A DNA stretch of 44,596 nucleotides from Vulcanimicrobiota bacterium (GTDB lineage: Bacteria > Vulcanimicrobiota > Vulcanimicrobiia > Vulcanimicrobiales > Vulcanimicrobiaceae): the NCBI GenBank assembly GCA_003135555.1, contig PLCF01000020.1, forward strand, positions 1-44,596. The letters run 5' to 3'. Positions 31,247 to 34,159 of the stretch are shown here, one piece after another. The notes under the pieces are model-generated. The model was not told the DNA's origin and made no database searches. It saw only the letters and a list, made by a program, of their open reading frames with translations. A program made the position numbers and the translations under genes. Within the stretch, counting starts at the first letter, position 1; every line of letters starts with the position of its first letter.

Positions 31247-31300
31247 AGGAATCTCCGTGACGGTGCGGGGGCCGGGCCTGGACTCGCGGCCGTGTGTAGC

Positions 31301-31308
31301 ATTATAAT
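31301..31308. repeat. Left target-site duplication ATTATAAT
   Basis: Identical 8-mer at 34130-34137 directly flanks the other TIR. Confidence 0.9.
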
Positions 31309-31336
31309 GGCTATTATTACCTTGACACAACAAGCA
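31309..31336 (+). repeat. Left terminal inverted repeat of the IS
   Basis: Pairs with 34102-34129. Confidence 0.9.
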
Positions 31337-31350
31337 GGCTCCTGTAGAAT
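31322..31350 (+). promoter_or_regulatory. Sigma-70 promoter of the transposase (probably leaderless)
   Basis: TTGACA (31322-27), 17 nt, TAGAAT (31345-50), then 6 nt to the ATG at 31357; no SD. Confidence 0.75.
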
Positions 31351-31356
31351 AGACGC

Positions 31357-32301
31357 ATGGACCGGATACCAACGCCGACCACGCTCCTCGAAGCCGTCCG
31401 CGCTTTTGCTGACCGGCAGGTCGCTCACGACTACTTCGTCGCGATCCGTTGGCCGAACGGGATGGCTTGCCCCCGCATAGGCTGCGGATCGGCGGACGTG
31501 GTGCGGATCGCGCAGCGCAACCTGTGGAAGTGCCATGAGTGCAAGCGGCAGTTTACCGCCAAGGTGAACACGGTTTTTGAGGACTCGCCGATTGGCTTCG
31601 ACAAGTGGCTTCCGGCCCTGTGGCTGCTCGCGAGCAACCGTAACGGAATCTCGTCGTGCGAGCTGTCGCGCGGACTGAACGTGTCGCAGAAGGCGGCATG
31701 GTTCATGCTCCATCGCCTGCGGCTGATGATGCGTAGCGGGACGTGGGACCGGCTCTCGGGAGAGGTCGAGGTTGACGAGACGTACGTCGGTGGAAAGACG
31801 CGGCGTTTCGTGCCAATGGCGGTCCGCATTGGGAAGGCTCGCAAGCAGGCGAAAATGGACGCGAAAACCGTCGTCCTCGGAATGGTCGAGCGCGGTGGGC
31901 GGGTGCGCGCTATGGTCGTCGCGAGCAACCGTAAAGTCACGCTCGCTCCGCGCGTCCTCGGGAACGTCGCGCCCGGTTCGACGCTGTATACCGACTCGTT
32001 GCGCTCCTACATCGGGATGCAGGCCGTCTATTCGCACCACGTTATCAATCACGCGGTGGCCTACGTCGAAGGCAAAGTCCACACGAACAACATCGAGAAC
32101 TTTTGGTCCGTCCTCAAGCGCACGTTGGCGGGGACGTATATCGCCGCGCGCCCGTTCCATCTGGACGCGTACTTGGACGAGCAAGTGTTTCGCTTCAACG
32201 CCCGCGAGGACAACGATGGCGATCGGTTCGTGCAAGCCCTCAAGGGCGCGGATGGCCGACGCGTGACGTGGGCCGAACTAACTGACAAGGCCGACCGCTA
32301 G
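31357..32301 (+). CDS. IS1595 family DDE transposase
   Basis: Zn ribbon (RWPNGMACPRIGC...WKCHEC), HTH, VEVDETYVGG, LYTD, HTNNIENFWS, YLDE..FRFN. Confidence 0.95.
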   Translation: MDRIPTPTTLLEAVRAFADRQVAHDYFVAIRWPNGMACPRIGCGSADVVRIAQRNLWKCHECKRQFTAKVNTVFEDSPIGFDKWLPALWLLASNRNGISSCELSRGLNVSQKAAWFMLHRLRLMMRSGTWDRLSGEVEVDETYVGGKTRRFVPMAVRIGKARKQAKMDAKTVVLGMVERGGRVRAMVVASNRKVTLAPRVLGNVAPGSTLYTDSLRSYIGMQAVYSHHVINHAVAYVEGKVHTNNIENFWSVLKRTLAGTYIAARPFHLDAYLDEQVFRFNAREDNDGDRFVQALKGADGRRVTWAELTDKADR

Positions 32302-32540
32302 GGTTCAGAGTCGCCTGCGTCGGCAGCGCGACGCAGTGGGATCGGCGCGCTTCTGCGACGTCGAACTCTAGCGGTCCCCTCACGCTTCCAAGCGTCGATA
32401 ATCGCGTCCGCGTTCTGAAGACCGTACCGGAGAAAGAGATCGACCAAGAAGCTCTTCAGAACCTTACGGTCCGTGCTCTCTAGCGCGAGCTCGCCATCGA
32501 GTATGGGGTCGATCTTCAGAGAGCCGCGCTTGTCGGCCAT
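32298..32540 (-). CDS. Small IS passenger protein (80 aa), function unknown
   Basis: TACAAT -10 box 8 nt upstream of the ATG; stop shares CTAG with the transposase stop; basic C-terminus. Confidence 0.55.
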   Translation of the reverse strand: MADKRGSLKIDPILDGELALESTDRKVLKSFLVDLFLRYGLQNADAIIDAWKREGTARVRRRRSAPIPLRRAADAGDSEP

Positions 32541-32562
32541 GGGCGGCTATTGTAACCCAATC

Positions 32563-32609
32563 GTCCCCGGTTGTCCCCAACTGGGGAAGGATGGGGACAA
32601 ATGGGGACA
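32563..32609. repeat. Helically phased GTCCCC/GGGGACA direct and inverted repeats
   Basis: GTCCCC at 32563 and 32573; ATGGGGACA at 32591 and 32601; TTGTCCCCA/TGGGGACAA perfect 9-bp IR. Confidence 0.7.
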
Positions 32610-32733
32610 GAAGCGCCAGGACCAGCCCGGTCACGAGGAGCCGCCAAGGGCGGCACGTAAGTGGCCGGACCCCCCAATTGATGAGCCGCCAGCTCTTGCA
32701 AACGCTGGCAGCTCTGAGGGTGGGGGAGACAAA

Positions 32734-32805
32734 TGCCGCCGGTGGGGTCTGCCCCCACGCCTTCCGGATCCAGAATCCGGTGCTCGCTGACTGAGCTACG
32801 GCGGC
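32734..32805 (-). tRNA. Non-canonical tRNA-like gene, anticodon CTG (Gln-type)
   Basis: GCCGCCG-TA-GCTC-AGTCAGC-GAGC-A-CCGGA-TTCTGGA-TCCGG-AAGGC-GTGGG-GGCAGAC-CCCAC-CGGCGGC-A: all four stems are Watson-Crick perfect, 72 nt; lacks D-loop GG, TTC and encoded CCA. Confidence 0.8.
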
Positions 32806-32970
32806 CTATGTCGGGGAAGCCGGGGTCCGCAAGGGCCTCGTCTCCCTGTTCCTGAGAACAAATCTTCTCCGCCGCGACTTTGCCTTTGTCCTGCGGCAAT
32901 GCACAACACCCTGCGACGAACGCGCGTTCGTGCACAGCATCTAGCCCTGTAACGGCGGTACCGAGCTGCG

Positions 32971-33129
32971 TTACGCGGTCTTGTTTTTAGGTTTTGGGCC
33001 CCGCCTGATGCGGGGCTTTTCGCGCTCTGCCTTGGCTAGCGCGTCGATCTCGCTCTTCGGGACGGCGGCGGCGCGCGCTACGAACGCCTCGAAGGGGATC
33101 GGCGGCTTTGCCGGCTCAGGCTTTGCCAT
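32971..33129 (-). CDS. Small basic IS passenger protein (52 aa; below the ORF-track cutoff)
   Basis: MAKPEPAKPPIPFEAFVARAAAVPKSEIDALAKAEREKPRIRRGPKPKNKTA*, preceded by extended -10 TGgTACACT 7 nt upstream of the ATG. Confidence 0.6.
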   Translation of the reverse strand: MAKPEPAKPPIPFEAFVARAAAVPKSEIDALAKAEREKPRIRRGPKPKNKTA

Positions 33130-33161
33130 CGGTATGAGTGTACCACGAAACCCCGACGGCG

Positions 33162-33860
33162 CTACAACGTCACTGTGCGGTAAAGGTCCGCATGCTCACG
33201 TAGCAGCTTCTTCACCAAAGCGCCAAGAGATACTAAGACGACCTGTATGCCTTGTCGTCGAGCAAGCTTCATCGCAGGAACCAAGTCAGAGTCACAAGCT
33301 ACGAAGACAAGCCGATGAACGAGGTGCTCTTTCGCCATCATCGCTGAATCGACCCCGATCTTCAAGTCGGTGCCCTTCTGTTTGAGAACCGGCTTGAAAT
33401 CCGTGGCGACGAAATGGCGATGCGTTTGAATTACGTCGCTTAGCGAATCATCAAGAGGAATCCAGCCGTCGAAGGATATTTCACCCAATCGCACTGCGAA
33501 GTATTCTTCCAGGCGCAGGAAGTTTAGCATTTGGTTCTGGTGACTGACCGCCGCAGGCTCGACAATCGGCGTTAGCATGCCGAGCGGATGTGGCTTGACC
33601 TTCGATGGGCCGCCGCTGTACGGCGGACAGTCATAGTAGAAAATACGATAGATGGTTTCCTGTTTCGCATCGACGCAACTCTTCGCGAATTGCACAACGC
33701 GCCGCGCGTAGTCTCGGGGCCCGATCAAATCATGGATTTGCTTCATGGTGCCGTCGGCGCGCTTCAACGATTGTCCGGCGGCGCGCAGTTGCGCGCGCAA
33801 CGACTGCTTGATCTTGACCCGCAAGAAGCCACCGTCGATGAGAACCGCTGTTCGTAACAC
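33162..33860 (-). CDS. NYN domain (LabA/DUF88, PIN-like fold) putative RNase
   Basis: VLIDGGFL, RIFYYDC, KQKGTDLKIGVD, DSDLVPAMKLARRQGIQV; acidic catalytic residues intact. Confidence 0.88.
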   Translation of the reverse strand: MLRTAVLIDGGFLRVKIKQSLRAQLRAAGQSLKRADGTMKQIHDLIGPRDYARRVVQFAKSCVDAKQETIYRIFYYDCPPYSGGPSKVKPHPLGMLTPIVEPAAVSHQNQMLNFLRLEEYFAVRLGEISFDGWIPLDDSLSDVIQTHRHFVATDFKPVLKQKGTDLKIGVDSAMMAKEHLVHRLVFVACDSDLVPAMKLARRQGIQVVLVSLGALVKKLLREHADLYRTVTL

Positions 33861-33901
33861 AGGATTACTATGTTAGCAGAAATTGGTTAACGGGGCCCAG
33901 G

Positions 33902-33936
33902 AAACAACAAAGGGGCCCCTTTCGGGTCCCCTTTGT
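33902..33936 (-). terminator. Intrinsic terminator-like hairpin
   Basis: Minus strand ACAAAGGGG-A-CCC-GAAA-GGG-G-CCCCTTTGT followed by TGTTT; GNRA loop. Confidence 0.6.
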
Positions 33937-33961
33937 CAGACCGGCCTACCGGTGTACGGAT
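33902..33961 (-). ncRNA. Candidate small structured RNA upstream of the NYN gene
   Basis: Follows TTGACT...TAATAT; hairpin ACCGG-TAGG-CCGGT, then a terminator-like hairpin. Confidence 0.4.
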
Positions 33962-33967
33962 AAAACC

Positions 33968-33998
33968 ATATTAGCCGGGCTATGTTCCGAAAAGTCAA
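33968..33998 (-). promoter_or_regulatory. Putative inward-facing sigma-70 promoter for the cargo
   Basis: TTGACT (33998-93) and TAATAT (33973-68); the 19-nt spacer is suboptimal. Confidence 0.4.
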
Positions 33999-34101
33999 TA
34001 CCTTTGTCGTTAATATACGACTTTTGTCGCATTAAGGCCATTTTGGTTGACACACCCCCCGGCCGCCTCGCCCGGTTCCAGCTATAGCCCGGCTCTCCCC
34101 T

Positions 34102-34129
34102 TGCTTGTTGTGGCAAGGTAGTAATAGCG
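34102..34129 (-). repeat. Right terminal inverted repeat of the IS
   Basis: Reverse complement matches 31309-31336 at 25/28. Confidence 0.9.
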
Positions 34130-34137
34130 ATTATAAT
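34130..34137. repeat. Right target-site duplication ATTATAAT
   Basis: Identical to 31301-31308. Confidence 0.9.
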
Positions 34138-34159
34138 GCACACGAGTGGGCACGCCAGC

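Follow-up and report, generated by a model that had tools for sequence, protein, structure and literature searches.

This study concerns a stretch of 44,596 nucleotides from a Vulcanimicrobiota bacterium (NCBI GenBank assembly GCA_003135555.1, contig PLCF01000020.1, positions 1 to 44,596), hereafter the window, and in particular its positions 31309-34129, which are an intact, recently inserted transporter insertion sequence (tIS) of the IS1595 family with a modular cargo. Within this cargo, the gene of a nuclease with a NYN domain lies directly behind a structured RNA. We found this unannotated RNA tied to the nuclease gene across 16 loci, which makes the RNA-NYN pair the main lead to emerge from the analysis. 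Our preferred reading, which we consider probable but far from assured, is that the mobile tIS carries a conserved RNA-NYN unit among otherwise modular cargo, and that NYN is a tightly repressed accessory RNase serving either exclusion or addiction.

An original prediction, made from the letters of the DNA without database searches, had described the element as intact and had listed its cargo, all on the minus strand, as a promoter, a small hairpin RNA with a terminator, a NYN RNase, a 52-aa open reading frame (ORF), a tRNA mimic, hairpins, phased repeats and an 80-aa ORF, which together were proposed to form a mobile toxin-antitoxin or defence system. Every one of these parts was found at or near the position assigned to it, within ~1.8 kb of cargo. 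The combination had not been recognised as a described one, and the RNA-NYN module likewise appears in none of the family libraries searched (Rfam, PADLOC-DB) and nowhere in the literature found.

A conserved RNA in front of the NYN gene

The 5′ RNA of NYN occupies positions 33861..33961 (minus strand), immediately ahead of the nuclease gene. It consists of AUCCGUAC, a hairpin P1 (CCGG-UAGG-CCGG), a GC-rich hairpin P2 and, finally, the terminator-like UUGUUGUUU. A promoter-like site for the RNA and NYN can be read directly upstream (33968..33998, minus strand), in which TTGACT (33998-33993) and TAATAT (33973-33968) are separated by a 19-nt spacer, the latter box lying 6 nt before AUCCG. The -10 box of this site (TAnnAT) is aligned in 5/5 relatives. 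The promoter that had been predicted here therefore stands as a readable site with a recurrent -10 box, but not as one listed by the promoter scan, whose spacer limit was 16-18 nt.

The same leader design precedes the NYN gene in four relatives (loci L005, L042, L039 and L038). It comprises ~65-100 nt, with a predicted transcript 5′ end AUCCG(Y)(U)AC, a 5-bp hairpin P1 whose loop UAGG never varies, and a P2 that differs in sequence from locus to locus. The GC-rich P2 was present in all five leaders that were folded and was followed by a U-rich tract in three of them; the terminator scan did not call P2 a terminator. The exact RNA motif was encountered once each in 4 of the 401 genomes sampled from the phylum, always before NYN, and reversed controls gave 0 hits. 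RNAalifold found both P1 and P2, with compensatory changes in 5/14 pairs. The leader alignment used (A5), together with a covariance model built for this RNA (R1), was preferred to a MAFFT alignment (A4) that had misplaced P2 for L038 and L039.

The covariance model scored 65.6 bits at 33900-33961, which is the sole copy in the host genome, and it detected the RNA before more distant NYN genes in loci L045 and L093. In both of these, P1 reads CCCG-UAGG-CGGG in place of CCGG-UAGG-CCGG, so that both sides of one pair have changed. The closing pair of P1 is also seen to shift from A-U to G-C. A pattern scan of viral contigs yielded 41 loci, 24 of which match R1 at E<=0.1. The remaining 17 were dropped: 13 of them, one near-identical group reading TCCGATAACGCCCGTAGGCGGGTTTTT, resemble an ordinary terminator and gave no R1 match, nor did L145, L147, L163 and L169. 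In 10 of the 24 matching viral loci a NYN gene starts 43-67 nt after the motif, and in one (L155) an IS1595-like transposase gene is located just upstream. Altogether, the RNA and NYN are paired in 16 distinct loci, namely the window, L005, L038, L039, L042, L045 (on the same contig as L164), L093 and 9 further viral contigs, and an IS1595-type transposase lies beside four of the pairs. In a 24-row alignment (A6), 95.4% of the cells are paired, vs 65% after shuffling and at most 52% after sliding, with both-side changes in all 9 pairs of P2. The small hairpin RNA/terminator, which had been listed as just one small RNA among the parts, is thus real, is conserved elsewhere and proves to be the sole constant partner of NYN.

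In a tree of NYN proteins, the RNA is carried by 13 of the 20 rows of one clade (support 99/95). Within this clade the RNA is absent from L096 and from six chromosomal homologs, of which five come from the same genus and the sixth from a metagenome contig. Outside the main clade, L045 and L177 are carriers on long branches; L093 also carries the RNA and has no label in the tree as printed. Rfam contains no family for the 5′ RNA: the best match was Atu_C8 with 24 bits vs 50, and no family matched the RNA in 8 viral loci.

Two peculiarities of individual loci may be recorded here. Direct repeats CGACAAARGT extend over the -35 region of the NYN promoter only in the window (33993-34030, minus strand) and in L039 (6720-6760), and may constitute an operator. 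In L093, a metagenome contig of 1101 nt, the end repeats the start and the N-terminus of NYN is read twice, so the molecule is either circular or a collapsed tandem.

The NYN nuclease

The nuclease gene (33162..33860, minus strand) encodes a protein of 232 aa with a NYN domain of the MARF1/LabA-like, PIN-fold type; it begins with GTG and has no obvious Shine-Dalgarno sequence. The match to Pfam PF01936 passes only narrowly (25.5 bits, cut-off 24.2) and covers residues 148-225, and the relatives of the protein are annotated with the same family. The predicted structure (pLDDT 92.6) is closest to the NYN domain of MARF1 (Z 16.4, rmsd 2.5 Å over 142 residues), followed by VPA0982 (2qip; Z 15.8) and by FEN/PIN-like nucleases (Z ~10). 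The acidic residues D9, D165, D171, D190 and D192 are invariant in 18 relatives and presumably represent the catalytic positions. The identification of this ORF as a NYN RNase was thus confirmed by a MARF1-like fold and by its invariant acidic residues. The fold and the conserved acidic residues are common to the window protein and the MARF1, LabA and VPA0982 nucleases; sequence identity amounts to only 16-19%, however, and the window NYN has ~80 extra residues, including a 25-aa insertion that occurs only in its own subgroup. Searching the sequences of the PDB with a NYN profile gave only a designed protein, at E 0.004, which is a chance match. Because of the link to tRNA, HARP and PRORP-type protein RNase P were also considered; neither is among the structural matches listed, though a relation may nevertheless exist.

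Several features point to an accessory role of the gene. Its GC content is 54.6% vs 67.6% for the window, with a GC3 of 0.65 vs 0.87-0.92 in the flanking genes, a base composition that indicates foreign DNA. NYN was present in 10 of the 401 phylum genomes. Its closest relatives are found in L042 (72% identity) and L005 (70%), the proteins of L038 and L039 being 40% and 36% identical, and a metagenome scan with the NYN alignment returned mostly relatives of 31-37%, the close ones being only L042 and L043. Full-length homologs of ~30-33% identity were identified in 167 plasmid records (129 conjugative) and in 65 phage records. In Escherichia phage ev099 (L136, 4001-4858), a homolog with 30% identity sits between the cI-like repressor gene and N, and 48 records of Stx2a-converting phages also carry a NYN homolog. 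The slot between repressor and N in lambdoid prophages is the position of rexAB; the ev099 protein belongs to another NYN clade, though, and lacks a 5′ RNA of this type.

In PADLOC-DB 2.0 the protein matched PDLC01154 “NYN”, a defence-candidate model (E 4.8e-5), and HEC-09 (E 0.036), both weakly, and no match was obtained for the other three proteins of the element. The prediction of a complex between NYN and the 52-aa protein scored 0.00 in two runs, which says nothing either way. NYN is not mentioned in the preprint of Vassallo et al., and the literature searched contained nothing specific on NYN in phage defence, on passenger genes of IS1595 elements or on ISNwi1.

The carrier element and its polymorphism

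The element is bounded by terminal inverted repeats of 28 nt, the left at 31309..31336 (GGCTATTATTACCTTGACACAACAAGCA) and the right, which pairs with it (inverted repeat I1), at 34102..34129; the IS ends begin GGCTATTAT and CGCTATTAC. The original prediction had likened them to the ggnnatTAT ends of the ISNwi1 group, a putative assignment. The 8-bp target-site duplication ATTATAAT can be read on both sides (31301..31308 and 34130..34137), and when it is included the inverted repeat extends over 31299-31336 and 34102-34139 (38 nt, 92% complementary). The transposase (314 aa; 31357..32301, plus strand) has an N-terminal zinc ribbon and a DDE domain. It matches the complete Pfam profile DDE_Tnp_IS1595 (PF12762, positions 1-153 of 153, E 1.5e-38), Zn_ribbon_IS1595 (PF12760, E 3.6e-11) and the NCBIfam model transpos_IS1595 (NF033547, E 2.1e-51). 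A promoter-like site for this gene, TTGACA-17-TAGAAT (31322-31350; 11/12 matches in the promoter scan), is placed inside the left end, the inverted repeat of which holds its -35 box. Target duplications of the IS1595 family measure 8 bp. The zinc-ribbon DDE transposase, the terminal inverted repeats and the 8-bp duplication thus assign the element to this family, and the ~1.8 kb of passenger DNA between the transposase gene and the right end of a single IS identify it as a tIS. Both the intactness of the element and its capacity to carry passengers, as originally proposed, are upheld by these data. In its treatment of tIS, the TnCentral preprint (10.1101/2021.05.26.445724) describes them as carriers of passenger genes and limits them, as of that time, to IS1595 and IS66. 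The window element has the transposase type, ends, duplication and internal passengers of the known tIS of its family, but its cargo (NYN with its 5′ RNA, a pseudo-tRNA and the 52-aa protein) was not found described in the literature.

The insertion separates a divergent gene pair, an AMP-binding CoA-ligase gene and a gene for a regulator of the HTH/shikimate-kinase type. At the IS ends, -35-like hexamers (GTGTCA and GTGGCA) lie 16 nt from the duplicated TATAAT (31301-31328, minus strand; 34110-34137, plus strand). The end hexamers and the duplicated TATAAT would together create outward hybrid promoter-like sites directed towards both flanking genes, with 10/12 matches each. The related element L039 is flanked by the duplication ACTATAAT, which suggests that this IS subgroup may prefer -10-like targets; that of the L005 element is AGGTTTTG.

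Contigs assembled from peat metagenomes revealed the element in more than one state. In run X2, a contig representing the empty site joins 31300 to 34130 and skips 2829 bases, i.e. the 2821 bases of the element plus the 8-bp duplication; its depth is 36, vs ~10 for the element. Run X1 contained only the filled form. The presence of the empty site in one peat metagenome indicates that the insertion is recent. X1 and X2 may be the source samples of the genome, so this is to be taken as polymorphism within a population and not as independent confirmation of the assembly.

Two other runs (X5 and X6) revealed a sibling element inserted at this chromosomal site; its left junction is covered, with 35 differences. 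The contig departs from the window at 32300, where the transposase gene stops; its next 30 letters read like the close of a gene of the 52-aa type (...PKPKPKPQPR, stop), and coverage is ~0 over 32432-32923. In addition, 33093-34096 is replaced in the sibling by 1023 other letters, which may represent a NYN allele under the 90% likeness threshold. The sibling therefore appears to lack the 670-bp block that holds the tRNA-like gene and the 80-aa ORF, its transposase stop being joined straight to the 52-aa gene.

The remaining cargo

The 52-aa basic protein (32971..33129, minus strand) has no Pfam family. Relatives of it were found in four other IS1595-type elements: two from the host genome (C9 and C14), both without NYN, and those of L039 and L005, where its gene lies upstream of the NYN promoter and downstream of NYN, respectively. 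A profile of these five members retrieved 63 cluster representatives (E<=1e-3) among 1.84 billion, mostly of 50-70 aa. Judging from these relatives, the ORF is a member of a real small family that goes with the IS1595 subgroup, not with NYN.

Between the transposase gene and the 52-aa ORF lies the variable 670-bp block (32302..32970), comprising the 80-aa ORF, phased repeats, hairpins and the tRNA-like gene, and apparently absent from the sibling element. The 80-aa ORF (32298..32540, minus strand; GC by codon position 0.667/0.469/0.691) is an orphan: only the protein itself was found among 5.8 billion proteins, and it has no family in Pfam, NCBIfam or PADLOC. Since it has no relatives, its coding status is unproven. 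Of the two micro-proteins that had been proposed, both thus exist as ORFs, with the support of relatives for the 52-aa one and none for the 80-aa one. Nine nt before the ATG of the latter ends a region (32549..32608, minus strand; inverted repeat I9) with a promoter-like GGGACA-17-TACAAT and four phased GTCCCC/GGGGAC repeats. The predicted repeats were confirmed, with four copies at 32563, 32573, 32593 and 32603 (spacing 10, 20 and 10 bp; the whole 44.6 kb contains 38 copies), and their arrangement over the promoter-like site looks like that of an operator; nothing comparable to it was found elsewhere. One of the hairpins noted earlier is a readable 16-nt palindrome, ACGAACGCGCGTTCGT (32916..32931, minus strand), downstream of the 52-aa ORF. 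When the part of the block at 32541-32970 (430 nt) was compared with 301 genomes of the family, the only match was one of 50 nt to an ordinary tRNA-Gln gene, the other rows being chance matches of 20-45 nt.

The tRNA-like gene (32734..32805, minus strand) carries a CUG (Gln) anticodon and is recognised by the Rfam tRNA model RF00005 with 53.4 bits (gathering score 29; E 6.5e-10), so the predicted tRNA mimic, with its tRNA-Gln(CUG)-type anticodon arm, is indeed present. All four stems (7+4+5+5) are fully paired and the anticodon loop reads UUCUGGA. The D loop (AGUCAGC) lacks GG, the T arm (GUGGG-GGCAGAC-CCCAC) lacks T-Psi-C, and no CCA is encoded. ARAGORN did not find the gene with default or relaxed settings, the latter producing spurious calls, none of which matches the Rfam cloverleaf. 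Because the elbow contacts between D and T loops are missing and ARAGORN does not detect it, we classified it as tRNA-like and not as a tRNA gene. In its anticodon arm and variable region it resembles a congener's tRNA-Gln(CUG) (82% identity over 50 nt), and it is unlike the host's own tRNA-Gln(CUG); on these similarities, it is best called a tRNA-Gln-derived pseudo-tRNA. Such a molecule, with the anticodon arm of tRNA-Gln and no elbow, inside an IS is a rarer curiosity, which could bear on tRNA-directed conflict systems if it is active.

Possible role of the RNA-NYN unit

The cargo falls into three modules. The first is the conserved unit, in which the NYN ribonuclease gene stands directly behind its 5′ RNA; the second, the 52-aa basic protein, accompanies the IS1595 subgroup with or without NYN; and the third is the apparently optional 670-bp block with the pseudo-tRNA and the orphan 80-aa ORF, equipped with its own promoter-like site and phased repeats. 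This modularity is suggested by the apparent lack of the block in the sibling, by the lack of a tRNA within 3 kb of NYN at 9 of the 10 viral loci and by the presence of the 52-aa gene without NYN in C9 and C14. A role as an accessory gene or in genetic conflict is suggested for NYN by its sparse distribution, foreign composition, occurrence on plasmids and phages and weak PADLOC match.

According to our preferred reading, NYN would do harm when produced in excess and would benefit its carrier by keeping out phages or rival elements, or through addiction. Its level would be held down by the 5′ RNA, with most transcripts ending at P2, just before a weak start codon. In support of such tight repression, the terminator-like hairpin directly precedes start codons that are non-ATG or lack a Shine-Dalgarno sequence: GTG in the window and TTG in L005, L042, L038 and L146. 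The invariant P1, at the very 5′ end of the transcript, may be a site recognised by a protein, most simply one that NYN binds or cleaves. This contact could result in self-regulation or in an RNA antidote of the type III kind; a trigger for defence is also conceivable. The pseudo-tRNA was most likely acquired secondarily and, if active, might mark the NYN/52-aa transcript for processing or affect its stability, or else serve as a decoy. If true, a new RNA-controlled nuclease module of this kind would give a function to part of the uncharacterised bacterial NYN/LabA family.

Several observations weigh against this reading. That NYN is toxic is presumed solely from the fold of the protein and its genomic context. 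The homologs from phages and plasmids belong to another clade, without the RNA, so the context in which they are found transfers only weakly to the window protein. Alignment A6 was fitted to the covariance model, and the covariation of P1 in it is partly built in by the search pattern. In 14 rows matching R1 (12 distinct viral loci) no recognisable NYN follows the RNA, which may therefore have its own function, unrelated to NYN. The account of the sibling element is drawn from assembled contigs, partly read, at a likeness of at least 90%. Finally, of the three elements in which NYN lies between two identified ends, two (those of the window and L039) have an aberrant tRNA, more than pure-chance capture predicts, and the perfect pairing of all four stems of the pseudo-tRNA argues against simple decay.

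Type III toxin-antitoxin systems (ToxIN, CptIN and TenpIN) occur on mobile elements and play a role in abortive infection. Their likeness to the locus described here lies in the order of promoter, small structured RNA, terminator-like hairpin and a ribonuclease gene reached, as predicted for the window, only by read-through. They differ in two respects: the window leader has no tandem repeats (the TRF row of 1.9 copies is the P2 hairpin itself), and the window nuclease has a NYN/PIN-like fold, not that of ToxN. A more specific proposal can be built on this likeness, namely that the 5′ RNA and NYN make up an undescribed two-part type III-like toxin-antitoxin or abortive-infection module, in which the UAGG hairpin is bound or cut by NYN, the terminator sets the ratio of RNA to nuclease, the module is spread by tIS and viral contigs (possibly prophages), and the pseudo-tRNAs of the window and L039 tune or redirect a tRNA-directed activity. 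In this full form we consider the proposal doubtful.

The nearest described parallel to the 5′ RNA is provided by the RNA motifs associated with DUF3800 (Rfam DUF3800-I to -XI). In the account that Weinberg et al. (2017, PMC5737381) give of these motifs, they are structured RNAs whose function is unknown, several of which have a 3′ terminator and which are associated with one protein family. They differ from the 5′ RNA in sequence, fold and partner protein, and a DUF3800 gene is also among the cargo of C14, an IS1595 element of the host. In the viral locus L143, a DUF3800-VII RNA (63.8 bits) is located 240 nt before an RNA of the NYN-leader type.

NYN might instead be an ordinary regulatory or RNA-processing RNase with no part in conflict, the 5′ RNA being a self-regulating leader and the IS merely spreading a mildly useful gene. 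RNase E, RNase III and Regnase-1 control their own mRNAs in this manner, and an invariant UAGG loop on a covarying stem, maintained at the 5′ end of the NYN transcript across proteins only 31-40% identical to one another, speaks for such control. No antitoxin-like protein is consistently linked to NYN, PADLOC provided nothing beyond its weak single-gene match, and the six chromosomal homologs without the RNA have no IS nearby. The sparse, patchy distribution (10/401) and foreign composition of the gene, and its recurrence on IS elements, viral contigs, plasmids and phages, are less easily accommodated, and the RNAs of the same design that occur without NYN in phage contigs, with their own terminators, look more like a separate small RNA than like a mere 5′ UTR. 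On balance, we find this explanation rather unlikely, though it deserves to be taken seriously.

In the integrated system of the original prediction, NYN would be a nuclease that cuts tRNAs and the tRNA-like RNA its partner, serving as an antidote, as a decoy or as a substitute tRNA that resists cleavage; the small RNA and the micro-proteins would be further parts. PIN-fold toxins such as VapC cut tRNAs, and the coexistence of a PIN-like nuclease and a tRNA-shaped RNA on one element recalls both these toxins and tRNA-based escape from tRNA-cutting defences. The tRNA-like gene is on the same strand as NYN, downstream of NYN and the 52-aa ORF, and its perfect stems and intact anticodon arm, combined with altered D and T loops, give it the look of a selected and not a decayed gene. 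Furthermore, L039, a second NYN-carrying IS1595 element, also has an aberrant tRNA, and in 106 loci of the NYN family (L005-L021, L033-L121) tRNA genes number 20 in the 314 kb closest to NYN (up to 2 kb away) and 8 in the 317 kb at 2-5 kb, a ~2.5-fold difference in density, compared with 55 in 3570 kb of the host genome; of the 12 loci where a tRNA lies within 2 kb, 11 have it on the 3′ side. These 106 loci are not independent, and the tRNAs are ordinary ones of many identities, which the location of islands at tRNA genes explains equally well. The aberrant tRNAs are confined to 2 of the 16 RNA-NYN loci and differ in type, strand and position: that of L039 has 87 nt, a long variable arm and the anticodon UGC, and is encoded on the other strand, between a DUF5343-like gene and NYN. 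A tRNA-like gene is missing from L005 and L042, the loci of the nearest NYN relatives; the tRNA-Met and tRNA-Glu genes found 430 nt from L042 are ordinary ones. There are differences from VapBC as well, since an RNA and no protein antitoxin precedes NYN, NYN is not VapC, and the 52-aa protein has no known domain. With the block apparently missing from the sibling at the same site, the 80-aa ORF without relatives and the 52-aa family also occurring without NYN, the inheritance of the parts as one system is contradicted, and we regard the integrated system as improbable. The co-occurrence of tRNA-like RNAs with NYN, which had been suggested as a check, was seen in 2 of the 16 RNA-NYN loci, both of them among the three elements with two identified ends. 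What endures of the toxin or defence proposal is the plausibility of such a role for NYN, given its distant homologs on conjugative plasmids and in a lambdoid phage, without the integration of the other parts.

The cargo could also be passive DNA that the IS picked up and that now serves neither the element nor the host. We find this hardly credible despite the orphan 80-aa ORF, a tRNA-like gene without canonical loops and cargo that differs among the four IS1595-type elements of the host, because the NYN frame is intact with its catalytic-type acidic residues invariant in 18 relatives, the RNA has stayed coupled to NYN through deep divergence and shows compensatory changes, and the 52-aa family is conserved in 5 elements.

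Related elements and further observations

The host genome, a metagenome-assembled genome of 3.57 Mb (84% complete), contains three further IS1595-type transposase genes with 65-69% DNA identity to that of the window element. On contig C14 (21355-24405) the cargo consists of a DUF3800 protein (E 1.4e-8) together with a 63-aa protein related to the 52-aa ORF; the element on C69 (about 49230-51635) carries a 296-aa ORF of no known family; and on C9 (~68500-69700), where the ends were not found, another relative of the 52-aa ORF, 58 aa long, abuts the transposase gene. The cargo is different in each of the four elements, and the three additional ones with their differing cargo indicate that the host genome is rich in tIS. 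These elements are a little-studied route for moving single accessory genes, of which four were detected in one peat bacterium, one of them caught in both its filled and its empty state. In a congener, L039 is an IS1595 element of 4572 bp, the transposase of which is 72% identical to that of the window; its right end was located by the exact reverse complement of the left end, after a degenerate pattern had given nothing.

The RNAs that stand without NYN in viral contigs form a group of their own. RNAs beginning with AUCCG, with a UAGG hairpin and a terminator of their own, were observed in L143 (2676-2761 and 3000-3060), L148, L150, L151, L159 and L166. As read from the sequences, they are situated in phage contigs and follow ORFs of amidase or lysozyme-like type; those of L143 and L148 are also found beside serine-recombinase-like ORFs.

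Two observations concern tRNA genes elsewhere in the host: contig C83 (48687-50222) contains 16 tRNA genes in 1.5 kb, one of which was called tRNA-Pyl(cta) by ARAGORN, and contig C85 has a tRNA for which a 4-base anticodon (ttag) was called. Finally, a gene of the DUF5343 family is convergent with NYN in both L038 (5022-5777, E 1.4e-13) and L039 (4921-5601, E 2.4e-5, under the cut-off). These two loci belong to different families of the order, and within their NYN subgroup DUF5343 may represent another partner that recurs.

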